From an uncultured Thiotrichaceae bacterium (GTDB taxonomy: Bacteria; Pseudomonadota; Gammaproteobacteria; SZUA-229), in the NCBI GenBank assembly GCA_964421315.1, contig CAYQXD010000004.1, positions 1 through 43,793 of the forward strand: a stretch of 43,793 nt of DNA. The letters are read 5' to 3'. Position numbers and translations under genes: made by a program. Below the pieces are notes generated by a model. The model saw only the letters and a list, made by a program, of their open reading frames with translations. It made no database searches and had not been told where the DNA came from. Every line of letters begins with the position of its first letter. Within the stretch, counting starts at the first letter, position 1. This document shows positions 841-30,745 of the stretch, in pieces.

Positions 841-944
841 GCCTAACAGTTAAATATACAGCGCCGCAAAACTCCTGATTTCAGGTAGATATACAGCGGC
901 TCGGCTAACAGAGATAGTCAGCTCTGTATAACTCCGTTACAATT
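841..944 (-). other. attI: attI-1, integron recombination site upstream of and divergent from intI
   Basis: Core G|TTAGGC at 847..841 is complementary to the first cassette's R'' (9-bp TCGCCTAAC/GTTAGGCGA). Direct repeats CGCTGTATAT x2 and a second core-like GCTGAC-N7-GTTAGC. Extent is defined by the copy at 30642..30742. Confidence 0.88.
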
Positions 945-990
945 GGTTTAATTTAGGGAGTACATATTAATACGTCAAGGAGGACTTGTC

Positions 991-2382
991 ATGTCAGTAA
1001 GTGAATCGCCCACTCATCAGGCTTCTGTTGATCAGTTTTGGGGCAACTATCTGTTTATATTAGAAAAGAATGCTATCCCAAAGAACTCGATACCCTGGTA
1101 TCGCAAGCATGCTGAAGCCTATATAAGAGCCCACAAAAATACCCCTCTTAGCGGTCAAACTGGACAGGATATTGACTGCTATCTAAATGCAAAAGGCAGA
1201 CTAACAGAACTAAAAGAGTGGCAGTTTCGTCAAATTGCCGACGCAATACGGCTTTTATTTACCGAACTGATTCAACCTCAATGGTCAGAATCTTATGACT
1301 GGTTCCAATGGCGGGCATTTGCCAGGGAACTTGAACCTGATCACCCTACACTGATGAGGGATGCAGACCCTGGTAGCATTGTCGCACCATCGAGTAATCA
1401 ACATATTCTTCGTTTTAGAAAAAATTATCCTGAAACTCATCTGGCTTTCGTGAAAACGATACGTGTACGTCAAATGGCGGTTAAAACTGAAAAAACGTAT
1501 GAACAATGGATCGCCAGGTTTCTACGCTATTGTAATTGGCAAGAAATAGATAAGCTGGGTCTTGAAAACATCAAAAACTTTCTGGAATACCTTGCTGTAT
1601 CACGCAAGGTTTCAGGGTCAACACAAAAGGTCGCTTTGAATGCATTAATTTTTCTCTTTCGGGAGGTGCTGGGGCGGGATGTTGAAAATATCTTAACCTT
1701 TACCCGAGCATCATCAAAACAACGAATACCAACAGTACTTTCAGTTGACGAAATCAAGCGTTTATTAAAAGAGATGAATGGCCGATCAAAGCTGATGGCA
1801 TCATTAATGTATGGCACAGGTATGCGTGTCATGGAATGCACACGATTGAGGATTCAGGATATTGATTTTGATTACCAACAAATTACTGTTAGAGAAGCTA
1901 AAGGAAATAAACAACGAGTTGTTCCATTACCAGAGAAACTCATCCCATTGATTCGTACCCATCTTACTCAAGTGAAAGCAATACACGATGATGACCTTTC
2001 TGCAGGGTTTGGTGAAGTTTTATTACCTGCCGCTCTAGCTAGAAAAATGGGATCTGCTGCAAAAAGTTTCTCATGGCAATATGTTTTCCCAGCGACTCGA
2101 TTAGCTTTTGATTATCGAACCGGTAAAACACGCCGCCATCATATCCATGAAACCGGTTTACAAAAAGCGATAAGAAACGCGGCTAGAAAAGCAAATTTCA
2201 CTAAAAGAGTGACTAGCCACACACTACGTCACTCTTTTGCTACACATCTACTGGAATCAGGGAAGGATATTCGTCTAATTCAGGAGTTGTTAGGTCATGC
2301 TGATGTCAGCACGACTATGATATATACCCATGTAATTAAAAAAGGCGGACTGGCCGTTAAAAGCCCATTTGATGCCTTATAG
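991..2382 (+). CDS. intI: Integron integrase (tyrosine recombinase) with ~130-aa N-terminal extension
   Basis: YGTGMR, KGNK, HTLRHSFATH, LLGH..V.TTMIY motifs; IntI-specific insertion (GFGEVLLPAALARK...WQYVFP...RRHH); adjacent attI and attC. Confidence 0.97.
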   Translation: MSVSESPTHQASVDQFWGNYLFILEKNAIPKNSIPWYRKHAEAYIRAHKNTPLSGQTGQDIDCYLNAKGRLTELKEWQFRQIADAIRLLFTELIQPQWSESYDWFQWRAFARELEPDHPTLMRDADPGSIVAPSSNQHILRFRKNYPETHLAFVKTIRVRQMAVKTEKTYEQWIARFLRYCNWQEIDKLGLENIKNFLEYLAVSRKVSGSTQKVALNALIFLFREVLGRDVENILTFTRASSKQRIPTVLSVDEIKRLLKEMNGRSKLMASLMYGTGMRVMECTRLRIQDIDFDYQQITVREAKGNKQRVVPLPEKLIPLIRTHLTQVKAIHDDDLSAGFGEVLLPAALARKMGSAAKSFSWQYVFPATRLAFDYRTGKTRRHHIHETGLQKAIRNAARKANFTKRVTSHTLRHSFATHLLESGKDIRLIQELLGHADVSTTMIYTHVIKKGGLAVKSPFDAL

Positions 2383-2392
2383 CGTAACTCTA

Positions 2393-2434
2393 CATAGGGT
2401 TGAATATGCTGTGTACAGCATATTCAACCCTATG
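2393..2434. terminator. Perfect 20-bp-arm inverted repeat between the convergent intI and csrA genes (bidirectional terminator or REP-like)
   Basis: CATAGGGTTGAATATGCTGT-gt-ACAGCATATTCAACCCTATG. Confidence 0.65.
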
Positions 2435-2438
2435 GGCT

Positions 2439-2618
2439 TCAAACGCTTTCTGCTTTTTCTTGCAAAATTCGCTGGTGAATTTCTTCACGGTTCACCACCA
2501 CGTTTTTAGGTGCATCAATGCCTATGCGTATTTGGTTGCCCTTTATTTCTAAAACCGTGATTTTTATATCATCCCCAATCATGATGGATTCATCTTTATT
2601 GCGTGTTAGTAATAACAT
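2439..2618 (-). CDS. csrA: Carbon storage regulator CsrA/RsmA homolog, 59 aa (not in the ORF track)
   Basis: Manual translation [59 protein letters not shown]; RBS AAGGAG upstream. Confidence 0.95.
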
Positions 2619-2656
2619 AATATCTCCTTATATTTACAAAATTATTTAAGTTTTAT

Positions 2657-2935
2657 TCACTGCGCTAGTAGCCAGTCTTCCCATTCTCTGGATATTTTTT
2701 TATCCGCTATTTTTTCAATTAAGCATTTCCTGGCATATTGGCTGGCATCATTCCTGCCTTCGTAATCGCCTAATCTGGATACTAAAGTATCCTGCAACCA
2801 TAACCTTACTACTTGATGTGCCTCAGCTGTACCCGGTACTCTTTTTAACTTGATTGCCATCATCTCGGATAGTATGTTATCCACTGAGATAGTGTTGCGC
2901 TTTTCCCCAAAGGTAATATGATAACGAGTGTGCAT
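2657..2935 (-). CDS. Small putative ribbon-helix-helix DNA-binding protein; paralog of 29819..30100
   Basis: Shares RYHI.FG.KR.TI.VD.ILSEMMAIKL...RLWLQDTLVS.LG.YEGRNDASQ with 29819..30100; start chosen by alignment. Confidence 0.75.
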   Translation of the reverse strand: MHTRYHITFGEKRNTISVDNILSEMMAIKLKRVPGTAEAHQVVRLWLQDTLVSRLGDYEGRNDASQYARKCLIEKIADKKISREWEDWLLAQ

Positions 2936-3079
2936 AAAAATAACCTGTTGCGTGATTTCACAGGATACTATTATATCCATAATGTGGGCAAGACAACCTA
3001 CAAAAAATAATCAAGCTGCCGCTTGAACCTTCATGGTTAGTTTATCCTCAAAAATGGGTGGAAAAACTGCGTGTGATAT

Positions 3080-3376: not shown

Positions 3377-3414
3377 AATAAAACCTCACCACCTGGAAAT
3401 CACGCATGCGTGAT

Positions 3415-3774: not shown

Positions 3775-3802
3775 GGTTACTCTCCCATGTTTAAAAGGAC
3801 TG

Positions 3803-4249: not shown

Positions 4250-4299
4250 TGGATTAATCCCGTATTGTAGCCTTGGCTATTGCCCGGCTTTCAGTCTGT

Positions 4300-4328
4300 A
4301 TTATACCGCGCCATTGGCGCGGTTACAA
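4300..4328 (-). promoter_or_regulatory. Sigma70 promoter of the radC-korC operon with a palindromic operator filling the spacer
   Basis: Minus strand TTGTAA-ccgcgccaatggcgcgg(17 bp)-TATAAT; palindrome ACCGCGCCA-n-TGGCGCGGT. Confidence 0.8.
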
Positions 4329-4795: not shown

Positions 4796-4805
4796 AATTT
4801 ATACC

Positions 4806-9934: not shown

Positions 9935-12847
9935 TTAACGACCAATCGTCCTGGAAAAAACACCACTACCAACAAGATCGACCGAAGCAGTCGTATTATT
10001 TACGTTCTGAATGTCGCCGGTATCAATAACACGACTAAAAGTTAAATCAGTATCAATATTCCAGGTAGTCGTTTTATCCAGCTTTTTTACGCTATAACTT
10101 GAAAACCCCGCATGATCGGCTAATTCATTATCATAAAAACGACTTAAAACAGGCAGGCGAATTTTTTTAATAACAGAAATTTCTGTTCTTGGTGGGACTC
10201 TATAGTATCCACTAACAGGCAATATTGTTTGCCCTAATGTCGCATTTAAAACGCTCATGCTTTCAGTGTTAACATTGTAATTAACAATTGTCGTGGCAGT
10301 ATTATTTTTTGGGTATCCGGACTCAATTTCAACGGTTTTTACTATTATAGAATTAAGTTTGTTAATCACATCTTTTGGACGAGACCTGCTAAACAAAGCA
10401 CTACACGCAGATACACCTATATTACTATTTACAACTGAAAACCTAACAGGCGCTGGATAATTACCCGATAGATCACTGAGTTGGCATGTGTAATTTAATA
10501 ATGGAGATATTGATGGAACTGCCGTTATGTCTGATAAATTAGGCGAATCTTTGTAAACGGAATGGTAACTAGAATATTTAGTAGCTGATGGAAAAATTGT
10601 AGCATTATTCAAATTATGCCTTATTTGGTATGTTACCGAAGAAACAGAAGCACCTGATATGTCCCACTTTTCACTAACTTTAGCACGTGCGCTATTAACT
10701 CTGATACCCGTCTCATAAGTATGCGCCACACTATGAAGCTGGTTATCGGTTAAAGATATAAGCAGAGAGCTATTCGATGTGTTTTCAAAACTATAAATTA
10801 CATCGACATGAGAACCATCCATATTGCTACGGCTGGCAAAGGTTGTTGAAGTAAATAACGAATCATCGACTGTTGTAGTGATGGCTATTTCTGGAATGAG
10901 TACGTCAAACCTGACTTCAAAAAACTCTTCAGTAGAGTTTCCAGCATTATCAGTCACTCTAAATGTAACTTTGTGAACATCATTAGTTGTTGTCTGATAC
11001 CAGGTATTACCAAGATACTCTGTCACCATTGGAAAATAATAAAAAAGATTACCTTCAGCAATAGGTGCCGCACCCCAACCAAGAACCTCAATATTATTCA
11101 ACTCGTATTTATATTCAACCACAATATCATCTTGGGAAGTAAAAACGCCTGCGCCTTGTGGGTCTGTTGGCGAGAAACCTAAAAGAACATAACCCTGACC
11201 GTCTAAAGCACCCGTTAATGCAGTACCATTTAAACTGACATTATCAGTGCTAATGCACACCGGATTAATCTTTCCTGACGTTTGATTCAATTGGCGTATA
11301 TCACAAAGATTTAATTGTCCTTGAAAATTAGTAAACCTCGCTTGTGTGTTACCAGGCGTAATAATTGGAAAAATCAAATCCACCCCAACACTAGCCTCAA
11401 CTGTATTCGTATTACCCACCGAATCAGCAATAACAATACTGACTACATTGTCACCAGATAACAAAACAACCTCAGCCGACCAGGTATTCAGGTTTGCATC
11501 AATAACCGCATCAACTCCATTAACAACGATATTGGCCACCGGTGCGCCTTGCTCTGCATAAGTGCCAGTAGCGGTATAATTCTTATTATTAACCAGCAAT
11601 GGCGAAGTCATTGCTACCGTTGGTGAGCTATTGTCAATCACATAATGAAATGTGGTGGTGCTTTCATTATTTAATACATCGGTAGCCACCACGCCGATAG
11701 CTACAATGCCATCGCTATAACTGGTAGTGTTTAATGACATCACCGGATTAGTCACTTGTCCTGCACTGTGAGCAATGCCATTGACAGTGAACATCACGGT
11801 TTTAACACCAATCGGATCGCTCACGGTAAACTTAAGATTAACGATGTCTTTTAGAAAGCTGTCCGGTGCCAGGACTGCGGTGGCAACTGGTCCAACATTA
11901 TCCACTGGCTGCGCAGGCACACCACCAAACACACCATCGGTAGAACTGGCAACTTCATTGGCATAAAGCACAAAAGCATCCACACCAAGCGTGGTCACAT
12001 TACGATCAGATCCCATGATACTTAAAATATGTTGCGCAACCATAGAGCGCAGCGTTTCAACATCTAATGACACAGCGCCAAGCGATAACTGACCCACGCT
12101 GCTACCATTATTAATAAAACCCAAACCGTTAAAAATGCCATCTGCCCCAATATCCTGGCACATTACCTGCGTGGCATAAATGCTGCTATTTTGATTAAAA
12201 CGGTGTGGCAATACGCCGTTGGTAACGGACACTTCTGCGGTATAAGAAGAGATAGCCGCCAGCACTGCGCCATAGCGCAAATTGTCCGTCACCTCAAAAT
12301 TAGCATTATTCGGGTCGGTAATGTCATATGGCTTCGTGCCTAAAATATCAACACCAATTAAACCAGAAAAGACGCTGGTCGATTCGGTAATGGCATTATT
12401 TACATTCACCCCTTGACGTATTTTAGAGTCCGCTAAACACGTGGCTAAATGCGTAAACGATGTCACTTGCACAGTAATATCGCTACCTTGCTCATAAAAC
12501 AGATACGCACGTAGAACCTGACCGGGTATCAAATTAACCGACACACCGGATGCTTCCTCAGTATAACGACCACCGGTTACTTCTATGACAACAGGCCGGT
12601 CTATACTGGTGAAACCGTTAAGCACAAAATCACCTTTATTATCCGTGATCGTTTCAGCAATAAGATCACCCTGGACACCATCATCAAAGGCATACACACG
12701 AAGCGTACCGCCAATAATCACCGCGTCTGTTACCGTGCCATCAATCACACCACTAGGCGCAACCGGAGGCAGTCCACCACTGTTATCACTGCAAGCACTA
12801 ATGCTTAACAAAGATAAAAGCCCAACTATCCATATTAACTTGTTCAT
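9935..12847 (-). CDS. Large lipoprotein with Ig-like repeats, putative surface adhesin
   Basis: Lipobox ...LSISAC; V/T/N/S-rich beta repeats (VVATDVLNN, VIADSVGN, RVTDNAGN). Confidence 0.72.
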   Translation of the reverse strand: MNKLIWIVGLLSLLSISACSDNSGGLPPVAPSGVIDGTVTDAVIIGGTLRVYAFDDGVQGDLIAETITDNKGDFVLNGFTSIDRPVVIEVTGGRYTEEASGVSVNLIPGQVLRAYLFYEQGSDITVQVTSFTHLATCLADSKIRQGVNVNNAITESTSVFSGLIGVDILGTKPYDITDPNNANFEVTDNLRYGAVLAAISSYTAEVSVTNGVLPHRFNQNSSIYATQVMCQDIGADGIFNGLGFINNGSSVGQLSLGAVSLDVETLRSMVAQHILSIMGSDRNVTTLGVDAFVLYANEVASSTDGVFGGVPAQPVDNVGPVATAVLAPDSFLKDIVNLKFTVSDPIGVKTVMFTVNGIAHSAGQVTNPVMSLNTTSYSDGIVAIGVVATDVLNNESTTTFHYVIDNSSPTVAMTSPLLVNNKNYTATGTYAEQGAPVANIVVNGVDAVIDANLNTWSAEVVLLSGDNVVSIVIADSVGNTNTVEASVGVDLIFPIITPGNTQARFTNFQGQLNLCDIRQLNQTSGKINPVCISTDNVSLNGTALTGALDGQGYVLLGFSPTDPQGAGVFTSQDDIVVEYKYELNNIEVLGWGAAPIAEGNLFYYFPMVTEYLGNTWYQTTTNDVHKVTFRVTDNAGNSTEEFFEVRFDVLIPEIAITTTVDDSLFTSTTFASRSNMDGSHVDVIYSFENTSNSSLLISLTDNQLHSVAHTYETGIRVNSARAKVSEKWDISGASVSSVTYQIRHNLNNATIFPSATKYSSYHSVYKDSPNLSDITAVPSISPLLNYTCQLSDLSGNYPAPVRFSVVNSNIGVSACSALFSRSRPKDVINKLNSIIVKTVEIESGYPKNNTATTIVNYNVNTESMSVLNATLGQTILPVSGYYRVPPRTEISVIKKIRLPVLSRFYDNELADHAGFSSYSVKKLDKTTTWNIDTDLTFSRVIDTGDIQNVNNTTASVDLVGSGVFSRTIGR

Positions 12848-12864
12848 TTTTTACCCATCAAATT

Positions 12865-13437
12865 TTAAAAAGTAATGTAAAACCCTGCTTCTATTTTCCC
12901 TAAAACATCATTAACGGGAACAGAGGCACGAAGTGAAAAACCCGTACCATAATCGTCAAACCAGTCCGTATCCACGGTGAAATTAAAATCAACAGCAAGC
13001 CCTGTTTCGCTGGTATCGTCAAAACGCTGCGCTAGAAACCCCTGACTGTCGGCAATAAAGCGATCTTTAAACTCAAGCATCGCAACCGATAAACCCATAC
13101 CCAGCCACGGTTTAAAGTGACGACTTAAACGAAATCTTGATTGATAGATGGCTGCAACTTCAAACCCTGAAACACGTTGACCTATTTTTGTTTGAGAACC
13201 TTCAAAATCAAGCGAATGGTATTGCGCCTGTATCCAATACCGACTGCTGCGCCCTGAGTTGATCACAAGCAAGCCACTTAACGCATTTGCAGCTATTAAA
13301 TTTTCAGAATCACCATCCAGTGTCGATTGATAAACACCAACAACAGGCAGGATGCCATACTCAAAGGTATCGGCACTGGCAAGTGAAGGTAAAAAGAAAA
13401 GAAATGAGGCAAATATCCCTTTAAAATTAATATCCAT
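12865..13437 (-). CDS. Small outer-membrane beta-barrel protein
   Basis: Signal peptide (LASA|D), amphipathic strands, FKPWLGMG, C-terminal aromatic GFYITF. Confidence 0.72.
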   Translation of the reverse strand: MDINFKGIFASFLFFLPSLASADTFEYGILPVVGVYQSTLDGDSENLIAANALSGLLVINSGRSSRYWIQAQYHSLDFEGSQTKIGQRVSGFEVAAIYQSRFRLSRHFKPWLGMGLSVAMLEFKDRFIADSQGFLAQRFDDTSETGLAVDFNFTVDTDWFDDYGTGFSLRASVPVNDVLGKIEAGFYITF

Positions 13438-13526
13438 ATATCTGGTTTTTAGTTGAATGACACGGGTTAACAGCTAACTTGAATTTTATCACAACACTAT
13501 GTGAAGTACACAACTATACAACTAAA

Positions 13527-17638: not shown

Positions 17639-18279
17639 TACCTGGCTGCCTGGTTAGAAAAGCCACGATAAATATGTTTTGATTTAAAAAAGGCATCACT
17701 ATCACGTTTCATCGCCGCTGCATTTTCTGCTTCTTCGTTTTGTCTGCGCAAATCCTCAGCAGCCATCAGTGCCGCCATTGAGGCAGTTGATTGCGCGGTA
17801 ATTTGTGTACTTTGGCGTTGCGGAATATCGGTGCTGGCTTCTTCTATGTTTTCAACGGCGGCTTCCTGAAATTCAAACATGGCTTTCATGTTTTCCAAGC
17901 GACCAAGTTGATAATCATAAAAACGTCCGGTATTTTTACCGGTGTTTTCCATCACGTTTAGATCGTTGAGCAAACCCTGCATTTTCCATCGACCGCTCGC
18001 ACCCTGTGACGAGTTAAAACCAAACATTTCATTGGCGGCTTTTTTTAAATTAAAATTAACGATGGCATCATATGCCTGCTCCGCTTCATAAATTGTCTGA
18101 TTAATTTCAGCTGCGGTTTTTAAATGATCTTTCGCGTTATCATAAAGCTCAACGGTTTGTTGATACAAGGCGATGACCTGAGCTTCTAATTTTGGATCCC
18201 AGACAATGTCACCCGCACCCAAAACAGCATAAGCGTTGTTAGAAAACAATAATAAAAAAAGGATTTTAATGTGACGCAT
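17638..18279 (-). CDS. VirB5/TrbJ-like minor pilin
   Basis: Signal peptide, G.IVWDP motif, helical coiled-coil body. Confidence 0.6.
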   Translation of the reverse strand: MRHIKILFLLLFSNNAYAVLGAGDIVWDPKLEAQVIALYQQTVELYDNAKDHLKTAAEINQTIYEAEQAYDAIVNFNLKKAANEMFGFNSSQGASGRWKMQGLLNDLNVMENTGKNTGRFYDYQLGRLENMKAMFEFQEAAVENIEEASTDIPQRQSTQITAQSTASMAALMAAEDLRRQNEEAENAAAMKRDSDAFFKSKHIYRGFSNQAAR

Positions 18280-20650
18280 TGCGTATCTCCCTGAATAATT
18301 TTAACCGCTCAAACGGGTCCTTTGTCTGCATCGAGACTTGATCTTTGATTTCTAAATCGGTCGGTTTACTGCTGCTGTCGGTGGCCGATAAATCAAGCAA
18401 GGTTTCTGGAAAAGTCAGAAACATATCGTAGCAGGCATCACCCACCAGACGCAGGCCAGGACGATACGGTTTACCCATTGGGTTTTTATAACCTTGCCAC
18501 TTATCTAATGCACCTTGAGACAATGAAATACGTTGTGCGATTTCAGCGTGTTCGTCTGGACGATAAAGCAGCGATTTAAACTGCATCGAGTTCAGCACTT
18601 CATTTTCAATCGTATCCAGCTCCTTAATACCCTGGGTGACAATATCGACAAAGGCGGCATCTTTACGCCCCATTCTGGCCAGCCCGGAAATTAACGCACC
18701 CATCACCTCTGGAAACGCGGCCACCAGTTTGTGCATTTCATTTAACAAAATACCGGTCTTTCGGTAATTGGCGAAAGCCAGGTTGTTAAATCGCAGTGAG
18801 ATAAAAACCAGATAGAACTTGAGCAAATCAGGTGAAGCCTTGTCCACCTCTTTTAAATCAACCCCTGAAATACCCTCCGATAAAAACAAATTATCTTCGC
18901 GAGTAAAGATACGCCCTTCTGAGGTATCTAAAAAACTGTGCAGATTCGCCGACATCACACGCGCCGCTTGATTGACTTCCTTTTGTTCAAAATCCAGTTC
19001 TTCCAGAGACACTAAATAGTCGGCAAGATTAGGCGCTTTGGTGTTTGTTTTAGGCACCGCGTACAATAACTGCATGGCACTTTGCGCGGCATTGGACTCA
19101 TGTATATCCAGCTTAACGCGCCCATCGGTTAATAAAAAAGCCAGTGAATGCACGGTTTGAGCAACTAAGATGACATCAAGAGGATAATCATTATCATGCC
19201 TTGCCATTGCATATTCAGGCAAGGGATTAATCACCGTCTCGCGTGGATCAATCTTTGTATAGGTTCCGCCCAGGGCTTCAACCACCCACTGATAACTGCC
19301 ACCAATTTCTGCGGTGTACCAGTCAATACCAAAACCGTAGGTTTCCACCATGGTGAGTATTTTTTCAACATCCTTTCCTGATCCGGTTTTCGCGGTGGTC
19401 AGGGCATGAAGTAAGGACTGGTTGCTGTAATTAATACCAATGAGTTGTCCGTTAGCACTCAGACGCAGGGATTCAGGGTTATCACTGTCGCCTTTGGCGT
19501 ACACTTGAACAGGCGACATATTGGCGCACTGGATATGATGATCGGGGCGTAACATCGGAGATAAATAACCCTGCCCTGGTTGCGCTACCCGAAAATACGG
19601 TAATTGAATGTAGTCGTTTGACCGAACCTGCCCGTTTTTATTAATGCTGTCAGCCAGCCTTCTCGCCATTGTTTCAACTTCATCACGCTCGCCATGAAGG
19701 TGAATAATGTAAGCATTTTTAATGATACGAAGATCATTATCAGCGACAAAAGCACGAAAATCGCTCATGTCCTGCATTTGCCGCCGCTGCATATCTGCAC
19801 CTTTCTTACCCGCTGTGCCTTCGGCAAAGTTTGTGCTGCGCTCACTATCAGACATCGCCTTTTGCGTATTCACCGGCTTTAATATTTGCACGATATGCGC
19901 CGCTATATTCACGCTGGCAAGCTGTTCTATCCAGCCAGCATCGGCATCAGGGTACAAATAAACGAATAGCACTTTTGTATAAATAGTTTGATTTGCTAAA
20001 CAACCCTCTTTTAACGCAGGCACATAACTGACAATTTGTTCATTAAGCGGAATTTGTGGATTTTTATCAGATAGATCAACATGACTATAATCTTGTGTTC
20101 GGTCAAAACTTTGAACAATTCGGCAACGATATTCATTCACCGGTAAAACTTTACTGCCAGTCAAAGAGTTAAGTAAATCATGTGCATGGCTAAGTAATTT
20201 ATCGGCCAACAGAGATTGATTAACCAGTTGTTTTTTTATCCGTAAAGTAGAAAATAACGTTTTTTTCGGTATAGCCGTTATCACTAAACAAACGCTATTG
20301 GTCATGCCATACAAGGCTAAATGCTCGGCGTGTTTTTCACGAACAAAAGAAATAAATTTTTTACTGCGCTCTAATTTTTCATTTAATGAAAGGTATTTTT
20401 TTGCAAGACTATCATCCCACTCTCGCCAAAGATGCTGCTCATAAACATAATCAGAATCTAATTTTTCAAAAAAAGTAATTAATGATTCATAACAAATTTC
20501 TTTTTCTGCCGCCGTCATTATTTCGGTATCAACACCATCCCACTCAACCATGACGGACACGGCACCGTCATGGTGTGCAATACAGTGTTTACCTAAAGCA
20601 TGCGACCAGGTGAAATAATCAGAATAGTGTTTGTTAACTAAGGGAATCAT
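18266..20650 (-). CDS. virB4: VirB4-family ATPase with atypical Walker motifs
   Basis: 794 aa; HALTTAKTGSGKD, EIGGSY...GG.Y, INPL, LLNEMH, R.GRK..A....VTQ. Confidence 0.85.
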   Translation of the reverse strand: MIPLVNKHYSDYFTWSHALGKHCIAHHDGAVSVMVEWDGVDTEIMTAAEKEICYESLITFFEKLDSDYVYEQHLWREWDDSLAKKYLSLNEKLERSKKFISFVREKHAEHLALYGMTNSVCLVITAIPKKTLFSTLRIKKQLVNQSLLADKLLSHAHDLLNSLTGSKVLPVNEYRCRIVQSFDRTQDYSHVDLSDKNPQIPLNEQIVSYVPALKEGCLANQTIYTKVLFVYLYPDADAGWIEQLASVNIAAHIVQILKPVNTQKAMSDSERSTNFAEGTAGKKGADMQRRQMQDMSDFRAFVADNDLRIIKNAYIIHLHGERDEVETMARRLADSINKNGQVRSNDYIQLPYFRVAQPGQGYLSPMLRPDHHIQCANMSPVQVYAKGDSDNPESLRLSANGQLIGINYSNQSLLHALTTAKTGSGKDVEKILTMVETYGFGIDWYTAEIGGSYQWVVEALGGTYTKIDPRETVINPLPEYAMARHDNDYPLDVILVAQTVHSLAFLLTDGRVKLDIHESNAAQSAMQLLYAVPKTNTKAPNLADYLVSLEELDFEQKEVNQAARVMSANLHSFLDTSEGRIFTREDNLFLSEGISGVDLKEVDKASPDLLKFYLVFISLRFNNLAFANYRKTGILLNEMHKLVAAFPEVMGALISGLARMGRKDAAFVDIVTQGIKELDTIENEVLNSMQFKSLLYRPDEHAEIAQRISLSQGALDKWQGYKNPMGKPYRPGLRLVGDACYDMFLTFPETLLDLSATDSSSKPTDLEIKDQVSMQTKDPFERLKLFREIRNASH

Positions 20651-20670
20651 TTTTTACAAAAAGTGGGGGC

Positions 20671-20943
20671 TTATATACGGCTTTGATGCTCGACAGTGGT
20701 TAACTTTTTATTGCGTTTTGTTTCAACAATGACACGGGCAAAAGCAATGTCATCACCATAATAGGCAACATAAATAACGGCGGCTAAAGAAAAAAAGAAC
20801 AAAAACAGCGCCAGTATTTTTATCGGCCACAGCAATATCATGGAAAAAACAGCGGTAATTAACAGGCCAACTAAACCCATCGCCATGGGCATTTGCATAC
20901 CGACAACACGTTTAATATCAAAACGACGATTAAAAGCGGACAT
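20671..20943 (-). CDS. VirB3-like small membrane protein
   Basis: 90 aa, two TMs, between the pilin and virB4. Confidence 0.6.
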   Translation of the reverse strand: MSAFNRRFDIKRVVGMQMPMAMGLVGLLITAVFSMILLWPIKILALFLFFFSLAAVIYVAYYGDDIAFARVIVETKRNKKLTTVEHQSRI

Positions 20944-21248
20944 TAACCGATCAGTGTTGCAATCGAATAAACAGCACCGGCAATAAAAATACCGATTAAG
21001 CCACCAATCAAAAATTGTTTACCCTTATCGGAATCACCTGCAGAAAAGTACATGCCTGCAATACCAATCGCGATCACACCAACAATAGCCGCCAGCAAGG
21101 TAACAATATCCGTCACCGCCTGCCCTTTTGTTTCCAGCGCACCTTCGAGGTCGCCGCCTTGTGCGTAGCTAGGTAAATTAGACGCATAAACCATCTTATA
21201 CATAAACAAGCTAACCGCCAGAAACAACCCTTTTTTCCAAAATTTCAT
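20943..21248 (-). CDS. virB2: VirB2/TrbC-family pilin
   Basis: Signal peptide plus two hydrophobic helices joined by GDSDKGKQ; likely start MKFWKK. Confidence 0.78.
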   Translation of the reverse strand: MKFWKKGLFLAVSLFMYKMVYASNLPSYAQGGDLEGALETKGQAVTDIVTLLAAIVGVIAIGIAGMYFSAGDSDKGKQFLIGGLIGIFIAGAVYSIATLIG

Positions 21249-21309
21249 AAAAACCCCTATAGTGTGAACTATATAACTATAAAACAAAAAAATAATAAAA
21301 GCACTGTTT

Positions 21310-21681
21310 TTAACGAATGCTTTTGCGCTTGATATTCAGCTCGGTGCGTAATGTCCAGGCTGAAAACCCAATAATCAGTTGTCCAATAAAGTACAAAGGC
21401 AACAATAAAATACCATTAATATTGATGATGATTAAAAACGATAATAACCATTCTTGAATAATGCTGGCATTGGCAAACCAGGTAATAAGTTGCTCTGTCT
21501 GCATGACTGGCAAGACAGGTAATAACGCATGATTTAAAAGCCATTCTCGAACCAGACCACCACCTAACAAACGTGATCGTATTTCAAACATGGGCAAGCT
21601 GGTTAACAACAAAAGAATAAAACTGGGTAAGACTAAAAGCGGCCACAAACGAAACCAGGTCAACATGACGCATGACTCCAT
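21310..21681 (-). CDS. Hypothetical membrane protein in the transfer operon
   Basis: Hydrophobic ORF overlapping the end of the coupling-protein gene. Confidence 0.55.
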   Translation of the reverse strand: MESCVMLTWFRLWPLLVLPSFILLLLTSLPMFEIRSRLLGGGLVREWLLNHALLPVLPVMQTEQLITWFANASIIQEWLLSFLIIININGILLLPLYFIGQLIIGFSAWTLRTELNIKRKSIR

Positions 21682-23288
21682 CCTGGGTTGTTATCGAGTG
21701 TTTCCTTCTCAACATTATCAGCCACGGTTTGTTGTGATAGTTTGCGTATTTCTTCAAGCTTATGCGGATTAAGGTAACGCTCCCAAAATCGAAGCCCGAC
21801 TGACAAATCCTCTTCATGTTCATATTTTGGTATTTCAATATTTTCCCAATCAGCAAAATCCGGTAACGGAAAGCGCATTAACCAAAATGGATTTCTCGCT
21901 TGCACCCCTTTGGTTATCTGAGTAGAGACATAGGCCTGGCCGGTGTCCAGCTCGCGTAAATCGCGCCCGGTAACCCGTTCAACATCACGAATACTGATCG
22001 TGTTGCCGGTGTAACTTTGATTTTCAGAGGCGGACACCTCAGCAACATCAAAACGATCTAAAATGACTTTTGCAAAATCAATGGTTGATGCGCCCTGCAC
22101 CCGTAAAAATATTTTTGTTGCCGCCAAATCATCCATTTGTTCAAGAAAATTAAAGGACACCTCTTTGATTTGAGCAACGCTTTGAAAGCTAAAAGCCGCA
22201 GGCATACGCGCACTTCGGGCGCGAGCCATAAAGGGAGAAAAACCATCATGCACAAACCGTCCCCAGTCATCAAAAAGCAAGGCGTAATAATCCGCAGAGC
22301 TACCCCCTGATAATTGTCGCGCCCTGGCTTCAACAGCAAACATTTCAGTAATAGCAACGGCAACCGCCGTTGAGTATTTCGTAAACGGTAAATGAAAATA
22401 CACCGATTGCTGTTTATTGATTATCGAATGAATATCAATATCGGGTTCGTAGGCGTTTAATCGGTCAGTATGTTCACCCGAAACATAGATAAACAACCGG
22501 TTGAGTAAGCCACCAATATTGCGAACACGCTCATCATATGGCACCGCAAACCACGCTTTCGCCAAAGAAAGCTGCTCAGCATTAATTTTATCGGATTGCT
22601 GCGCTCGTCTGATTAACTCAACACCGGCATCATCAACGGTTAACACCACATATAAATCACGCAAGTTTGCTTGTTTATCTAAACCCAGTAATACGGGTAA
22701 CACACGATTTAACGCGGTGTACTGTTCATCAGAATAATAAGTAGTTGATGTACTGCTACCAATCAATACCGCACTTAAACGATCAACCACCGCCAAAGGC
22801 TCACCGGCGAGCAAATTAATACTGGCTGAATCGGGTAACTCGGTAGAAAACAGATAATCAGGGTGACCGACATTGGCGATGTATTTGCGAATAATATCCA
22901 GATCCCCTTTTCCATCAAAAAACGCGATGCCTTTACCTAGCGATTTTCTAACGTATTCAACATAACCCAGGCTAAAGGATTCACTCTTACCCGCGCCAGG
23001 TTGCCCAAAACATAAAACACCCTGCATCAAGGTTTTTATCGACAAGCTACATTGTTCTATAACAGGTCGGTCTGGATTGGTTATTTCTAAACATTCTCCA
23101 AGCTGCCAATCATCTGAGGTCATGGCTTTAATCGGTTTTTTACGGGTAATAATCAGTAAGATTATTGCAGCAGTTGCAGCAATAAAAACACCCGCAAACA
23201 ACCATGACCAGGTAAACATCAATACCATCGCATCAATGCAAATAATCAGGAAAAGAATGTAGAGTATATTTCTCAAAATACATTCCAC
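21660..23288 (-). CDS. virD4: Type IV coupling protein (VirD4/TraD-like)
   Basis: Two N-terminal TMs, Walker A GQPGAGKS, FFDGKGD, ARARSA...FQSVAQI. Confidence 0.88.
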   Translation of the reverse strand: MECILRNILYILFLIICIDAMVLMFTWSWLFAGVFIAATAAIILLIITRKKPIKAMTSDDWQLGECLEITNPDRPVIEQCSLSIKTLMQGVLCFGQPGAGKSESFSLGYVEYVRKSLGKGIAFFDGKGDLDIIRKYIANVGHPDYLFSTELPDSASINLLAGEPLAVVDRLSAVLIGSSTSTTYYSDEQYTALNRVLPVLLGLDKQANLRDLYVVLTVDDAGVELIRRAQQSDKINAEQLSLAKAWFAVPYDERVRNIGGLLNRLFIYVSGEHTDRLNAYEPDIDIHSIINKQQSVYFHLPFTKYSTAVAVAITEMFAVEARARQLSGGSSADYYALLFDDWGRFVHDGFSPFMARARSARMPAAFSFQSVAQIKEVSFNFLEQMDDLAATKIFLRVQGASTIDFAKVILDRFDVAEVSASENQSYTGNTISIRDVERVTGRDLRELDTGQAYVSTQITKGVQARNPFWLMRFPLPDFADWENIEIPKYEHEEDLSVGLRFWERYLNPHKLEEIRKLSQQTVADNVEKETLDNNPGWSHASC

Positions 23289-25944: not shown

Positions 25945-26112
25945 TTGTATTATCCCCTTAAACATTCTCAAAGAATGTTACATTATACCAGTTATAATTA
26001 CAAAATAAATATTAATAATACATAAATAATGTAACATTATGGCGGAATGTTAAACAATTTAGTAATTTTATTATCCCAGTTACCTGATGGTGTTTAAAGT
26101 GATGATGACTCC

Positions 26113-26382
26113 TTAATCAAATAAATCAGAGTGCGATCCAGTACGCTCAAAACGTACTGTTTTCCCATCAATTCGATATATCAACAACCAATTTGGCTCT
26201 ACATGCAAATCACGACAGCCTCCCCAGTCACCCTTCAATGGATGGTCAAGATATACTGCTGGCAAAGGTTTTTCATCTATCAATAGTTGCATGGACTTTT
26301 TGATCTTTCCAATATCCTTGCCTCGTTTTTTGACACGTTTCAGATCACGGCGAAACTGCGTTGAAAAATCAGGTTGTCGCAT
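26113..26382 (-). CDS. yafQ: YafQ-family mRNA interferase toxin
   Basis: F.RDLKR..KRG...DHPLKGDW...RDLHVEP.WLLIY...RTGSHSDLF. Confidence 0.95.
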   Translation of the reverse strand: MRQPDFSTQFRRDLKRVKKRGKDIGKIKKSMQLLIDEKPLPAVYLDHPLKGDWGGCRDLHVEPNWLLIYRIDGKTVRFERTGSHSDLFD

Positions 26383-26642
26383 TAAATATCCAGCTGTTCA
26401 AAAAGATCCTTAGCATCCTTGGCGTGATGAACTTCTTCGCCTCGTTCGCTTTTGCGTAATGTTTCAGTGGTAAGTTTGTTTGGTATTTTTACCTCAAACG
26501 GGATGCCTTGATTTAATTCAATTTGTCGGTAAAACATTCGAATTGCCTCAGCGGTACTTATTCCTATTTGGTTGAGGATGCTCTCTGCACCAGCTTTAAG
26601 GTCGGCATCAATTCGAGCGTGAATGACTGCATTTTTTGACAT
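26382..26642 (-). CDS. dinJ: DinJ/RelB antitoxin
   Basis: IHARID..LK..AE.IL..IG.S..EAIRMFY.QI....GIPF...PN..T. Confidence 0.93.
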   Translation of the reverse strand: MSKNAVIHARIDADLKAGAESILNQIGISTAEAIRMFYRQIELNQGIPFEVKIPNKLTTETLRKSERGEEVHHAKDAKDLFEQLDI

Positions 26643-26834
26643 TAGTTAACCCTCTTGTTTTCTTTATTGTATCACAAACGGAACACAAATTAAAAAATTC
26701 TGACGTATAATGCCATTGCTGTGTTAATTGAGCACTCCTTGCGTTAGCGGCACCATCTGAAACCCCCTAAGCGATTTCATAATTATAAAATAAACGTTAA
26801 TAGTACATAAATAGCGTAACATTACGGCGGAATG

Positions 26835-27479
26835 TTAAACAATCAGTAGTTTTATATTGCTGCTAGTTTTTACCCTACTCGTTACTTTTTTTGGTTGCGC
26901 CCACGTTTGTTTTAATCCGCGCCGTTGCCAGGACAATGTTTTTTCCTGTATTTGTTTATTTGAATAATTGCCTGCATCCGCTTCAAATAAAATCATTTCA
27001 CCCGTTGCTTGATCGGTATAAACCGCATCAGGCAAATGCTCACCAATAAGGTTTTTATCGGTTTGAGATAATTTTATTGAAAGACGAAAATCACTTGGCC
27101 GATCTAAACGAAAATAAGCTTCTGAGGTGATGAGTTCATGGTAGTCACTTCGACTGCTGCCCGTATTGGGTAAACGGCCACCCCAGGCAACCGCCATTTC
27201 GTGACTGGAAAATTCAAAGGTTCGATAACGACCTTGACCCGCCACAAAAATATTGCGACTGCGAATTATATTGGCATCGAGTAATCGTTGTAATGAACGA
27301 GTGCCTTTTGTTTGTAGATGCGTGTAATGATGGTCGGCAGCTTGATTCGCTGAGATAATTTGTACTTTTCCTAAATCTCGCAAGAATTCTCGGTCTGCCG
27401 ATGTTAACCGTAATACGTTATTTTTTCCGGCAATGGAAAGGAGCTTTTTTGTTTTTGGGTTGTAGTGTCGTCGTGTCAT
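26835..27479 (-). CDS. Replic_Relax/MOB_C-like PD-(D/E)xK relaxase candidate
   Basis: RLT..D..FL..L wHTH, HEL..SEAY, LPDAVY...ILFEAD.GNY...I.EK. Confidence 0.62.
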   Translation of the reverse strand: MTRRHYNPKTKKLLSIAGKNNVLRLTSADREFLRDLGKVQIISANQAADHHYTHLQTKGTRSLQRLLDANIIRSRNIFVAGQGRYRTFEFSSHEMAVAWGGRLPNTGSSRSDYHELITSEAYFRLDRPSDFRLSIKLSQTDKNLIGEHLPDAVYTDQATGEMILFEADAGNYSNKQIQEKTLSWQRRGLKQTWAQPKKVTSRVKTSSNIKLLIV

Positions 27480-27639
27480 TTGGTTATTTTTTTAGGCTAT
27501 TTTATATGGAATCGCTTGTTTTTAATATCTAGCCGGTAACAACGACTGGGATTGTGGATGATGCAATGACCAGCGCGGGGTTAAACGTTCAGCAACCACT
27601 GATGTTAGTAGGGGACACGGGACTTGCTGCGTGGGTTTA

Positions 27640-27771
27640 GCAAGAACAGTTTTATCGTTCTTGCCGAAACGCTAACCAGAAAACCGGTCTTTTTCGGTTT
27701 TCTGGGTAGTGTGTAGCGAGGGCCGAGCCAACGAGCTTATCGAGGTACGAAGATAAGCCGTATGGCTCGGC
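27640..27771. other. Hairpin cluster upstream of the relaxase-like gene; candidate oriT or single-strand origin
   Basis: GCAAGAAC/GTTCTTGC, CCAGAAAACCG/CGGTTTTCTGG, and GCCGAGCCA/TGGCTCGGC with inner GCTTATC/GATAAGC. Confidence 0.4.
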
Positions 27772-28348
27772 GACAGCAAAGGCGCGATAGCGCGTAATGA
27801 GTGCATGTTTTGCAGCACGATATTACCTTGGGACTGTCCCGAGCTACGAGAAAATGGTAGGCGAAGCCTGCGGTGTAACCCATTAAATTTATTGTATTTT
27901 ACCATTAAAAAATGGAAACTATTACAGAAATATACCATACTTTTTGTTTTTTATACTACATTGCTTTTGTTTGGCACAATTTGTGCGTTTTTATACAAAT
28001 GTTCATTTTTTCTCATTTACATTGATAGAGTTTTTTAAAGTTGGTTGCACTGATGCTTTTTGGATCAACTTTATTATTAATGTTCACTGTGGTTAATGGA
28101 TACCACCAGTACAGGGATGTATTTGCCATACATGGATGTATTCCTTTCAAGCTGCATGGATGCAGCGTTAGGTTTTTGATAGAGCAGGGTAGAGCCAGGG
28201 ATGGCGTAGGACAGGTGTTTTTTTATTTATTTAATATAAATGAGCGATAGCGAATTCCTTGTTGAAAGGCATGGATGCCGGGGTTTGGTCAAGCCTGTAG
28301 GGAACAGGCTTGAACCTCCCGTCCGTTAAAAAATTAGAGGATTTGAAG

Positions 28349-28662
28349 TTATCCACAGGGTTTGTCTTGTGTTAAATAGAGTTAAATAAGTGTTAGTAGT
28401 GTTAAGACAAAAAAAACGCCTGTAAGTAATTGAAAAACCAATAAAAATAAAAACATGAGGTGTGTAAAACCCCGAAAATCGGTGTGTAAAACCCCGAAAA
28501 TCGGTGTGTAAAACCCCGAAGTTTGGTGTGTAAAACCCCGAAGTACATGTAGCGGTTATCAACAGGCAATTTCAGCCCTAAATATTCATCGGTGTGTAAA
28601 ACCCCGAAAACTTGACATTGGTGTGTAAAACCCCGAATATCAGCGGTGTGTAAAACCCCGAA
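28349..28662 (+). repeat. Plasmid oriV: DnaA boxes, AT-rich region and 7 iterons
   Basis: GGTGTGTAAAACCCCGAA at 28459, 28481, 28503, 28525 (22-bp period), 28591, 28620, 28645; TTATCCACA at 28349 and TTATCAACA at 28556. Confidence 0.93.
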
Positions 28663-28673
28663 AAGGATGTTGT

Positions 28674-29708
28674 ATGTCTATTAATACATTACTGCCAGAA
28701 AAACACCCACAGAACGACCTGTTTATCTGTGACGTAGCTGACGCTGTTTTAAAAGACATCATGCCGCAAATGGAACACCCGTTTTATTCGCTCTCTAAAA
28801 AGCCAGATACACAGATTAGACGCTACGAACATAATGGAAGCTGGTTAGAGATTACGCCAAGCGTTAAAGGTATGGCAACCATATATGATAAGGACATATT
28901 GATATATGCAATATCGCAAATAGTCGCGAAACTCAATCGTGGTGAAAAAATACAACAACGTGTAAAAATTAATTGTCACGAAGTTTTAATGTTTACAAAT
29001 CGAGGCACTGCAGGCAAAGACTATCTTTCACTAATAGAAGCCATTGACAGGCTTGCTGGTACTCGCATTAGTACCAACATAAGCGCTGGTGATGAAGAAG
29101 AATATAATAATTTTGGATTAATTGATCAGGGGTCTATTCGTCGCAAAAATGGGCTAAATGGTCGATTATTATGGGTTGAGCTTAAATTATCTGATTGGGT
29201 ATTTGATGCTATCAGTAATGCAAAAGTACTGACGCTACACAGAGACTACTTTCGTCTGCGTAAACCGATTGAAAGGCGGGTATATGAGATTGCAAGAAAG
29301 CAATGCGGCAATCAAAAAAGCTGGTCAATCAGATTAGAGCTATTACTTAAAAAATCAGGCTCGAAAAGTAGACTTAAAGAATTTAGACGATCGATTAAAG
29401 AAATATGTAAAACAGACCATTTGCCTGATTATAGTATTTACTTAGACGGATCAAACGATCAAGTCACGTTTACTAATCGGATGAAATATAAACAAAAAGG
29501 GAAGTTGCAACGCCCATCATTCAGTAGTACTAACATCTATGAAACCGCAAAAAAATACACTGGTGGTGAGGATGTATATGCCTGGGAGAACGACTGGATT
29601 AATTACTGGATAGAGTCAGGAAGCCCAACTTTACAAAACCCAGATGCCGCATTCATAGGATTTTGTAAAAGTCGTTATGTAAAAAATAAGCAACTGAGTT
29701 TAATTTAA
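28674..29708 (+). CDS. repA: Replication initiator protein A (RPA family)
   Basis: MEHPFYSLSKKPD, GMATIYDKDILIY, L.RLAGT.I.TN, LSDW, DYFRLRKPIERR.YEIARK.CG.Q. Confidence 0.93.
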   Translation: MSINTLLPEKHPQNDLFICDVADAVLKDIMPQMEHPFYSLSKKPDTQIRRYEHNGSWLEITPSVKGMATIYDKDILIYAISQIVAKLNRGEKIQQRVKINCHEVLMFTNRGTAGKDYLSLIEAIDRLAGTRISTNISAGDEEEYNNFGLIDQGSIRRKNGLNGRLLWVELKLSDWVFDAISNAKVLTLHRDYFRLRKPIERRVYEIARKQCGNQKSWSIRLELLLKKSGSKSRLKEFRRSIKEICKTDHLPDYSIYLDGSNDQVTFTNRMKYKQKGKLQRPSFSSTNIYETAKKYTGGEDVYAWENDWINYWIESGSPTLQNPDAAFIGFCKSRYVKNKQLSLI

Positions 29709-29712
29709 AATA

Positions 29713-29729
29713 GTGTGTAAAACCCCGAA
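29713..29729 (+). repeat. Eighth iteron immediately after the repA stop
   Basis: GTGTGTAAAACCCCGAA, same orientation as the oriV iterons. Confidence 0.9.
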
Positions 29730-29818
29730 GTGAACATAAAAAACCTAATTAAAACGATGATGCACTTTTACTTCATGGATAGTATAATATCCTCATTATG
29801 AAAAATGAGGGCTAATAT

Positions 29819-30100
29819 ATGTTGTGTCGTTATCATATTTGGTTTGGAAAAAAACGTACCACTATCACGGTAGATACTATTCTATCTGAAATGATGGCAA
29901 TTAAACTGGGGGGATTACCTGGCACAAAGGAGGCACATCGAGCCGTCAGATTATGGCTACAGGATACTTTAGTATCCACATTAGGCAACTATGAAGGTCG
30001 TAATGATGCAAGCCAGTGGGCAAGGCAATATTTAATCAGAGCTATTTCGGATAGTAAAATATCCAAAAAATGGGAAGACTGGAAATACGAGCTTGATTAG
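29819..30100 (+). CDS. Small putative RHH protein; paralog of 2657..2935
   Basis: See paralog; both are preceded by GGATA-N6-TATCC. Confidence 0.75.
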   Translation: MLCRYHIWFGKKRTTITVDTILSEMMAIKLGGLPGTKEAHRAVRLWLQDTLVSTLGNYEGRNDASQWARQYLIRAISDSKISKKWEDWKYELD

Positions 30101-30124
30101 GAAAAGAGACTTTTTAATACATCC

Positions 30125-30568
30125 ATGAAAAATAACAATGCTTACCGTTTAGTCATTACATTATTTTGTTTAATGCTGCTAACGGTGAATAGCCATGCAA
30201 AGGAATACAATACGCTCTTCGTAACAGAAGTGACCAGTGTTTTTGATGCAGATACTTTTCGCGTTAACATCAAAGATGTTCCGCCGATAATAGGGCAGAG
30301 AATGCCCGTGCGTATACTAGGCGTGGATGCGCCAGAAATCAGAGGCAAGTGCCAGGCTGAGAAAGTAAAAGCTCGATTGGCCAAACAATTTACGGTAGAA
30401 CAATTACGCTCCGCTAAAATCATTGAACTTCGCAATGTTCGGCGTGGTAAATATTTTAGATTGTTGGCGAATGTTTATATTGATGGTAAAAATTTAGCTG
30501 ATAGCCTGATCCAGGCGGGACATGCTAGAGCGTATGAAGGTGGGAAGCGTCAGGGCTGGTGTCAATAA
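30125..30568 (+). CDS. Secreted thermonuclease (SNase-like)
   Basis: Signal peptide; VFDADTF, VRILGVDAPE, KYFRLLANVY, L...GHA..Y.GG. Confidence 0.92.
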   Translation: MKNNNAYRLVITLFCLMLLTVNSHAKEYNTLFVTEVTSVFDADTFRVNIKDVPPIIGQRMPVRILGVDAPEIRGKCQAEKVKARLAKQFTVEQLRSAKIIELRNVRRGKYFRLLANVYIDGKNLADSLIQAGHARAYEGGKRQGWCQ

Positions 30569-30641
30569 AAAAATTACGGTTATGACTTCTCTTCAAAATT
30601 TATTAAAAACATATCGTCAGGTTTCCCAGTCAGAATGCGAA

Positions 30642-30745
30642 AATTGTAACGGAGTTATACAGAGCTGACTATCTCTGTTAGCCGAGCCGCTGTATGTCTA
30701 CCTGAAATCCGGAGTTTTGCGGCGCTGTAGGTTTAACTGTTATAA
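30642..30745 (+). other. attI: attI-2, second integron attachment site with no adjacent integrase
   Basis: 30642..30742 is the reverse complement of 844..944 with 4 mismatches in 101 bp. Identity stops at the core (G|TTA). Core GTTATAACCT is the exact complement of AGGTTATAAC at the attC at 33621. Confidence 0.9.

Follow-up and report, generated by a model that had tools for sequence, protein, structure and literature searches.

The 43,793-nucleotide (nt) contig CAYQXD010000004.1 of an uncultured Thiotrichaceae bacterium (GenBank assembly GCA_964421315.1) was analysed over its whole length, and that stretch is referred to here as the window. It carries an integron integrase gene, intI, next to an attachment site, attI-1, and, 29.7 kb away in inverted orientation, a second copy of that site, attI-2, which has no integrase beside it. 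A gene cassette encoding a two-gene Lamassu defence system is joined to attI-2 at the G|TT core, the position at which integron integrases cross over. This second site is the plasmid-borne counterpart of the integrase-less attI sites that predominate in the bacterial family. The best-supported reading, with a probability of roughly 0.7, is that attI-2 is an orphan partial copy of the integron platform into which the plasmid's own integrase, IntI, once brought cassettes and may still bring them. The window is one entire contig, and the coordinates of its features are collected in Table 1; the draft bin to which it belongs has 301 contigs and is 80.6% complete and 2.3% contaminated.

The inverted attI pair and its cassettes

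The two copies are inverted and match at 97 of 101 positions by column count (96% complementary in the repeat search). The mismatches fall at element positions 12, 13, 33 and 47, so that the 54 nt on the intI side are exact (30642-30695 in attI-2). A BLAST search of the 101-mer against the bin returned these two copies, with E values of 2.7e-47 and 7.0e-42, and no third copy in the 301 contigs, which places the inverted repeat far beyond chance. When 400 nt around each copy are aligned, the likeness is limited to the 101 nt. On the cassette side identity ends after a common GTTA, with the crossover G at 847 (minus strand) in copy 1 and at 30739 in copy 2. On the integrase side it ends at 944 and 30642, 1 nt past a TACAAT hexamer and 33 nt before AAGGAGG, which resembles a ribosome-binding site of intI. 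The original prediction had described an inverted 97/101 repeat whose identity stops at the G|TT core and before the intI ribosome-binding site, with a cassette behind each copy, and the repeat search, the flank alignment and the BLAST search of the bin bear out that description.

The element, which we take to be unrelated in sequence to attI1-3, has two degenerate direct units on its cassette strand, each ending CTGTTAGSC, the second of which carries the crossover, and it also has two GCTGTATAT motifs. As read from the sequence, this two-unit layout resembles that given for attI1 in the introduction of PMC12901181.

The assignment of the repeat as an attI comes from its relatives. The 101-mer was searched in 97 genomes of the family, the same 97 being covered by an order-level search; 17 of them contain it at E<=1e-8 (the genome of the window, G000, included) and 21 at E<=0.01, several with more than one copy. 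The surroundings of 29 copies outside the window, from 16 other genomes, were retrieved. In all 29 the likeness ends at [T/C]AAC, which is GTTA on the cassette strand, and unrelated DNA lies beyond. Where at least 500 nt were available on the cassette side (20 copies, window included), the nearest open reading frame (ORF) of at least 70 amino acids (aa) points away from the element on the cassette strand in every case, with its start 10-290 nt off. The attC sites that mark cassettes were located with a covariance model built from five sites of one type from these loci, an insensitive model whose absences mean little; an earlier energy-based scan had been dropped as too permissive, with 134 matches on the plus strand alone. 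Applied to 240,072 nt, the model gave 20 matches at E<=1. Three were opposite-strand echoes of training sites and one lay in a locus outside the 29, and with these excluded the remaining 16, from 8 loci, are all on the cassette side and in cassette orientation, with none on the other side. The related copies, this side bias of attC and the adjacency to intI all point to a genuine attI, as had been proposed from the window.

The ORF beside attI-1 had been called IntI, and by profile and alignment it is a full-length integron integrase. It scores 421.9 bits against TIGR02249 (cut-off 265), covering model positions 7-315 of 315, and it aligns with few gaps to VchIntIA (2a3v; 283.8 bits) across the IntI-specific insert, from patch III to box II, and the RHR/Y motifs. 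The statement that there is one integrase stands for the contig and fails for the bin, in which contigs C84 and C11 hold at least two more IntI homologues.

IntI residues 1-150 (991-1440) form an N-terminal extension with no Pfam or NCBIfam match, and in BLASTP this extension shows no likeness to the protein's own SAM-like domain. It is common to 89 database proteins, mostly of 463 aa; those that are named are called integron integrase and come from metagenome-assembled genomes (MAGs) of marine sulfur-oxidiser type. The homologue on C84 is 43% identical to IntI and has the extension, apparently in two frames near the C-terminus, while that on C11 is 46% identical and has no extension. C221 carries an IntI fragment, and the 3.2-kb contig C242 has three attC-model matches.

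The first unit behind each attI is, as judged from its ends and its attC, a cassette inserted at G|TT. The attC sites score 98.4 bits for cassette 1 (minus strand) and 78.4 bits for the Lamassu cassette (plus strand), both being training members of the model. Both are also found by a model-free palindrome scan, with a score of 13, the best of 5 shuffles reaching 10-11.5, and each folds as a single bulged hairpin (z -3.4), the attI element itself having a weak fold and no single hairpin (z -2.3 and -1.4). The original prediction was correct in placing behind each copy a cassette whose junction falls exactly on G|TT and whose R'' matches it; of the complementarities that it gave, 9 nt holds for copy 1 and 10 nt becomes 12 nt for copy 2. 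Such pairing between the start of a cassette and its own R'' is the trace that a circularisable cassette should leave when it has been opened at G|TT. Copy 1 thus presents the components of a complete integron: an IntI, an attI with a GTT core that adjoins intI and is identified by comparison, and an attC cassette oriented as expected.

The Lamassu unit is bounded by crossovers at 30739|30740 and 33707|33708, and independent support for its being a cassette comes from relatives that have the same ends and other neighbours. In the public run X3 a relative of the unit (60 differences in 1,190 nt, about 95% identity) begins at 30733, with a second piece ending at 33713; the DNA before it and the 1,575 nt after it are unlike those of the window. 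In run X7 a relative starts at 30739, again with unlike DNA outside. The contig comparisons given here cover runs X1, X2, X3 and X7; runs X4-X6 and X8-X14 have small shares. From their sequences, the two genes encode LmuA of the DUF4297/Cap4-nuclease type (355 aa) and LmuB, an SMC-like ATPase (584 aa). The former matches the PADLOC LmuA model PDLC00240 with 421.1 bits over residues 1-352 and Pfam Cap4_nuclease with 180.2 bits; the latter matches the PADLOC LmuB model PDLC00257 with 777.2 bits over residues 1-568. A predicted LmuA next to a predicted LmuB is what defines Lamassu. Cassette 1 encodes a 232-aa protein whose likeness to DUF4760 is weak (21.5 bits; cut-off 25), and 41 nt beyond its attC the contig stops.

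The closest LmuB relative in species-representative genomes (locus L143, 76% identity) lies in the MAG of a sulfur oxidiser, with lmuA in two ORFs. The attC model has no match at this locus, which is a non-cassette counterpart of the Lamassu cassette. A passage in 10.1101/2024.07.02.601719 describes such a parallel between cassette and non-cassette forms for other defence cassettes.

Origin and possible service of attI-2

At copy 1 the window would represent a complete integron of an uncharacterised environmental class, made up of a 463-aa IntI, a 101-nt attI, one or more cassettes up to the end of the contig and a Pc-like promoter. Copy 2 would be a partial copy of this platform, comprising the attI and the intI-directed promoter and lacking both Pc and intI, inverted and set directly downstream of nuc. 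The promoter-like site facing intI is inside the repeat and is present in both copies for that reason; the Pc-like site facing the cassettes is outside it and so is present at copy 1 only. On the integrase side of attI-2 there is no intI remnant, no intI leader and no Pc-like promoter, and no integrase within 30 kb on that side, in agreement with the description of this copy as integrase-less.

Beyond intI, in the mirror position to orf93 near attI-2, lies orf107, and the two ORFs are paralogues with 75% nt identity. The two attI copies, with 96% identity, are a much younger pair than these ORFs. Among foreign attI sites, the nearest matches attI-1 at 94 of 101 positions and attI-2 at 91 of 101. 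This suggests that attI-2 arose recently by partial copying of attI-1, or was recently converted by it.

The 2,968-nt Lamassu cassette would then have entered attI-2 through the usual attI x attC reaction of an IntI at G|TT, and the resident IntI could still act on the site in trans. Such service is mechanistically plausible, and the exact G|TT junction and its 12-nt complementarity would be its trace. Transcription of the Lamassu genes would come from orf93 and nuc by read-through and not from Pc. The genes nuc, orf93, repA and those of ParA/ParB are co-directional with lmuA and lmuB, and no terminator-like site was found between nuc and attI-2, which makes read-through the simplest source of Lamassu transcription.

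An attI without an integrase is the common state in this bacterial family. The integrase side could be judged in 28 of the 29 related copies. Nothing of intI is present in 21, two have an intact intI of 463 aa (87% and 90% identical), two have intI in two or three frames and three have short remnants. Nearly half of the related copies, 14 of 29, form a group called class B here (loci L027, L028, L029, L031, L032, L033, L036, L037, L039, L041 (6040), L042, L045, L048 and L049), in which another conserved extension stands in place of the intI leader. In class B, the first 90 or so positions of attI run into an extension of about 130-150 nt, in which a promoter-like site, TTGCTT-17-TATAAC, faces the cassette side. 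The genes past the extension are ordinary housekeeping genes in all 8 loci scanned, on chromosomal contigs of up to 191 kb, and some class B copies belong to genomes in which no integron integrase exceeds the cut-off. An empty site was sought for one class B copy, and none was found in the 11 other loci of the genus with the neighbouring glutamate-synthase-like gene, where the roughly 1.5 kb around the match, or less if the contig ends sooner, includes neither the attI nor the far flank. A second copy on the same contig occurs once more in the family, on contig C47 of genome G027, where the two copies are in direct orientation and 4.6 kb apart; no other inverted pair was seen among the family genomes.

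The strongest alternative is that attI-2 is an inert relic, which once took in the Lamassu cassette and has since ceased to recombine, with the gene pair fixed and transcribed from the backbone. This is possible, if somewhat doubtful, and several findings weigh against a site that is still in service. Of the 28 evaluable copies 26 lack an intact intI, and three genomes with copies, G024 (99% complete), G027 (95%) and G028 (81%), have no TIGR02249 match over the cut-off. Integrase-less copies thus persist without a resident IntI, so that an orphan attI needs no ongoing service and the existence of attI-2 is no evidence of use. All four differences between the window's copies are derived in attI-2. 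The attI-1 base is kept by 28 of 29 relatives at position 12 (T>C), by 25 at position 13 (A>C), by 20 at position 33 (T>G) and by all 29 at position 47 (T>C). Three of the changes thus fall at positions conserved in 25-29 of the 29 relatives, and the changes hit both GCTGTATAT motifs and a CCTGA/TCAGG palindrome. They look like relaxed constraint and are too few for a test. The consensus scan predicts no cassette-directed promoter at attI-2, and each attI has one significant attC on its cassette side. The identity of the 101-mer as an attI is itself derived from position and comparison. The junction between nuc and attI-2 is kept in no plasmid relative among the nuc and RepA loci and in PLSDB, so turnover of cargo at attI-2 cannot be seen. 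No variant cargo of attI-2 appears in the contigs assembled at k=31 from X1 and X2, the two runs that hold the plasmid; these contigs drop rare variants, and their silence points neither way.

Other evidence argues against a relic. Assays of attI x attC recombination routinely supply IntI in trans. The introduction of PMC12901181 may be compared on this point. A full-length IntI with intact catalytic motifs is encoded on the same contig, the attI-2 core TTTAACTGTTA and the 54 intI-proximal nt are unchanged, and a divergence of 4% is too small to prove decay.

The same promoter and attC results limit what can be said of attI-2 as a platform. The original prediction saw two independent first positions, which does not fit a Pc-like promoter that lies outside the repeat and a second copy for which no cassette-directed promoter is predicted. 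It also placed an array behind attI-2, where one cassette is demonstrable. The next best attC candidate, at 40406-40455, scores 9.4 bits with E 8.8 in the five-site model, and with no second significant attC the array amounts to a single cassette on present evidence. A specialisation for defence had been suggested as well; the DNA offers for it one cassette and an adjacent type I restriction-modification (R-M) operon that has no demonstrable attC.

It is improbable that the two inward-facing attI sites act as a switch, with IntI inverting the DNA between them by attI x attI recombination and so swapping cassette sets between a platform with Pc and one without a promoter. The inverted orientation and the end of identity exactly at the crossover would suit such a role, and IntI1 excises attI1-aadB-attI1 at over 97% according to PMC12901181. 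Should the contig ends join, the cassette-like units on the minus strand at the right-hand end would make the arrays converge. Set against this, the contig ends do not overlap, the k=31 contigs of X1 and X2, which cannot show rare forms, contain no recombinant attI joint, the only other pair seen (in G027) is direct, and attI-2 is substituted at conserved positions. A more far-reaching form of the idea is comparably unlikely. It holds that this is a double-headed integron, in which inward attI sites bound all the accessory DNA of the plasmid and one IntI loads both and swaps a Pc-driven set with a read-through set by inversion; the family's chromosomal modules of integrase-less attI plus promoter would then be landing pads loaded in trans by a plasmid IntI of this class.

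Misassembly is a very unlikely source of the pair. A contig misjoined across the repeat could have brought together attI copies, or the leftmost 843 nt, from different molecules or strains. The bin is a draft, the left piece, 1-843, is attached solely through the repeat, and its depth in X1 is 230.7 against 258-274.6 for the rest. X1 and X2 are possibly the source sample of the bin and not independent of it. In X1 the shared 54-mer has the summed depth, 520.8, twice that of its flanks (258, 274.6 and 230.7). Independent k=31 contigs of the two runs reproduce each flank, and in them every one of the four variant positions is linked to the cassette flank that belongs to it. As the contigs break at the exact 54-mer, they cannot confirm which cassette flank is paired with which platform. 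The exact repeat of 54 nt is well within read length, being shorter than ordinary reads. A swapped join would exchange the cargoes and would still leave one attI linked to intI and one orphan. Least probable of all, to the point of dismissal, is that the 101-nt repeats are the ends of a transposon or invertible segment, served for example by the 226-aa tyrosine recombinase at 41434-42114: inverted copies do flank about 30 kb and a second, small tyrosine recombinase is present, but related copies are single and not paired, abut intI where intI is present and have an outer boundary of GTTA followed by attC-bearing units, and the gene of the small recombinase belongs to the backbone in the nearest RepA relative, where the repeat is absent.

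Plasmid backbone and neighbouring DNA

The contig is a plasmid-like replicon by its gene content, having a replication initiator with iteron-like repeats and, further on from repA, genes for ParA/ParB. Genes of the RadC/HicB/ArdC leading-region type are present. The ends of the contig show no overlap. Conjugation genes are seen as weak matches only (TraC 80.1 bits against a cut-off of 567; VirD4-like 26 bits). The large backbone ORFs in 9935-23288 (970, 794, 542 and 378 aa) have no Pfam family, and their NCBIfam matches are far under cut-off; any conjugation system in this region would have diverged strongly.

Table 1. Features of the window, with strand and the basis of each assignment
Feature	Coordinates	Strand	Basis or remark
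Cassette 1 (797 nt): ORF 131-829 (232 aa) and attC 41-138	50..846	-	attC model, fold, complementarity
attI-1	844..944	+	46 nt upstream of intI; ends ...TTTAACTG|TTA read in cassette direction
Promoter-like site toward intI, TAGTCA-17-TACAAT	915..943	+	Consensus scan only
Pc-like promoter toward cassettes, TTGACG-17-TAAATT	978-950	-	Consensus scan only
intI, 463 aa; core residues 155-463	991..2382	+	TIGR02249, VchIntIA alignment
orf107, paralogue of orf93	2657..2980	-	75% nt; 64/88 aa; no family found
Replication module: five copies of a ~22-nt direct repeat (iteron-like), then repA 28674-29708	28459..29708	+	Repeat search; PF10134 RPA 276.4 bits
orf93, paralogue of orf107	29819..30100	+	64/88 aa
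nuc, staphylococcal-nuclease-like, secreted type	30125..30568	+	Stands where intI stands at copy 1
attI-2, integrase-less inverted copy	30642..30742	-	97/101 to attI-1
Lamassu cassette (2,968 nt): lmuA 30784-31851, lmuB 31900-33654, attC 33622-33716	30740..33707	+	PADLOC, Pfam, attC model
Trypsin-like peptidase and type I R-M: hsdR 34442-37480, hsdS 37449-38750, hsdM 38792-40399	33738..40399	+	PADLOC/Pfam; cassette status not demonstrated
38-nt inverted-repeat unit (GGGG...TAAG type), repeats 41345-41382 and 42845-42882	41345..42882	.	Repeat search
Minus-strand cassette-like units: 42955-43582, with ORF 42960-43529 between GTTAGGC/GCCTAAC boxes; 159-nt unit 43580-43738	42955..43738	-	Sequence reading; repeat in contig C240

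Searches of PLSDB returned, for 700-2500, a sole match of 72 nt in a Vibrio integron integrase and, for 26000-33800, matches to repA only, at 65-68% identity. None of 80 metagenome loci with RepA relatives (50-74% identity) has an attI (E<=0.01), orf93, nuc, Lamassu or a like IntI. None of 10 nuc homologue loci of the family has the junction of nuc with attI-2, and these loci lack both attI and orf93.

A direct repeat of 65 nt (89%) lies at 25957-26058 and 26779-26843, upstream of parA and of an ORF at 26835-27479. It includes the palindrome AATGTTACATT, which has the top score of the palindrome scan, yet is not an attC. The repeat is possibly a partition or operator site.

Past the Lamassu attC, where the DNA following the relative in X3 differs from that of the window, lies the type I R-M operon, whose hsdR scores 1110.4 bits; a 201-aa ORF without a family follows it. 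A trypsin-like peptidase of 229 aa (33738-34427) stands directly upstream of hsdR in the same direction and has weak PADLOC likeness to the protease-type LmuA model and to RT-protease. It may be a defence accessory of the operon.

The 38-nt inverted repeats farther right enclose the 226-aa tyrosine recombinase and an 83-aa ORF, and the unit is located where the two cassette directions would meet. The 87 nt outside its left repeat (41257-41343) are a copy, at about 90%, of DNA just inside it, including the 3' end of the recombinase gene. The nearest RepA relative, locus L063, has the recombinase gene (73% nt) without the 38-nt repeats. Beyond this unit, the 159-nt minus-strand unit recurs at 2863-3021 of contig C240 with 94% identity and unrelated flanks. 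One of its ends is bounded by YAAC, which is GTT on the cassette strand, and the 22-nt end recurs once more in C240. As an attC, its fold (43583-43730) is no better than that of shuffles (z 0.1) and its model score is 10.9 bits; it may be a second attC type that the five-site model misses. If the contig ends join, the attI-1 array would run round to the DNA behind attI-2, and since the ends do not overlap this convergent layout stays an inference.

Relation to known integrons and significance

In Cury et al. 2016 (PMC4889954), IntegronFinder classes are the complete integron, In0 and CALIN, and the attI is described as not searchable for most integrons. Half of the CALINs are reported there to lie in genomes that encode IntI elsewhere, with rearrangements that split integrons as a proposed origin. 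Like a CALIN, attI-2 with its cassette is an attC without a neighbouring intI. A CALIN requires two or more attC sites, and the attI-2 side has one by the five-site model (78.4 bits), so that it falls outside that class; unlike a CALIN as described, the orphan unit here keeps an attI and has an integrase on the same small replicon.

Copy 1 resembles complete mobile integrons in its IntI with the specific insert, the divergent orientation of intI and cassettes, the G|TT crossover, the attC architecture of R''-L''...L'-R' boxes with bulged bases and the predicted Pc-like promoter between attI and intI. It differs from them in the 150-aa N-terminal extension of IntI, the marine environmental host and a cargo other than resistance genes. 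Class 1 integrons of plasmids that have a truncated intI1, for example those associated with IS26, keep their attI and cassettes, as described in PMC9769970. In contrast to these, attI-2 has no intI remnant and no insertion sequence at the break, and an intact cognate intI lies elsewhere on the replicon.

Mobile integrons whose cassettes are attI-flanked or of delta-attI type also hold more than one attI-derived site in one integron context, and for IntI1 both such cassettes and reactions of attI x attI have been measured, according to PMC12901181. Those sites are direct repeats, or remnants of 11 to 238 nt, within one array; here the full 101 nt is present, inverted and 30 kb away. The original prediction had held that a loaded second attI is not a standard category. 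That view is too strong, since an attC without a neighbouring intI is a situation known from IntegronFinder and plasmid integrons with truncated intI1 are in print. A literature search of main texts outside subscription journals found no paper on a full attI copy, inverted and without an integrase of its own, that shares the replicon. The layout, an inverted integrase-less attI beside its cognate IntI on one replicon and loaded with Lamassu, is new in detail and is not a new category.

Defence cargo in integrons has precedents as well. In 10.1101/2024.07.02.601719, a two-gene cassette like Lamassu type 1, brc128, is among the phage-defence cassettes (BRiCs), and defence cassettes in sedentary integrons are described in 10.1101/2024.07.02.601686. 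Set beside brc128 by its description only, the window differs in having a full-size pair, LmuA (Cap4-nuclease) of 355 aa and LmuB of 584 aa, at an integrase-less attI. It adds one more natural case in which a full Lamassu system moves as the cassette of an integron.

These findings leave the understanding of integrons unchanged and are a neat case of an integron remnant whose kind is already known. Nearly all environmental attI sites are unknown, and integrase-less cassette clusters therefore cannot be asked whether they have kept a docking site. The natural pair of attI sites on a single replicon, with four differing positions, makes the service of orphans in trans a simple question for the bench. 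Because the 101-nt attI of this family can be defined by comparison, its sites can be counted, and in this one family of bacteria the orphan attI sites exceed in number those linked to an integrase.

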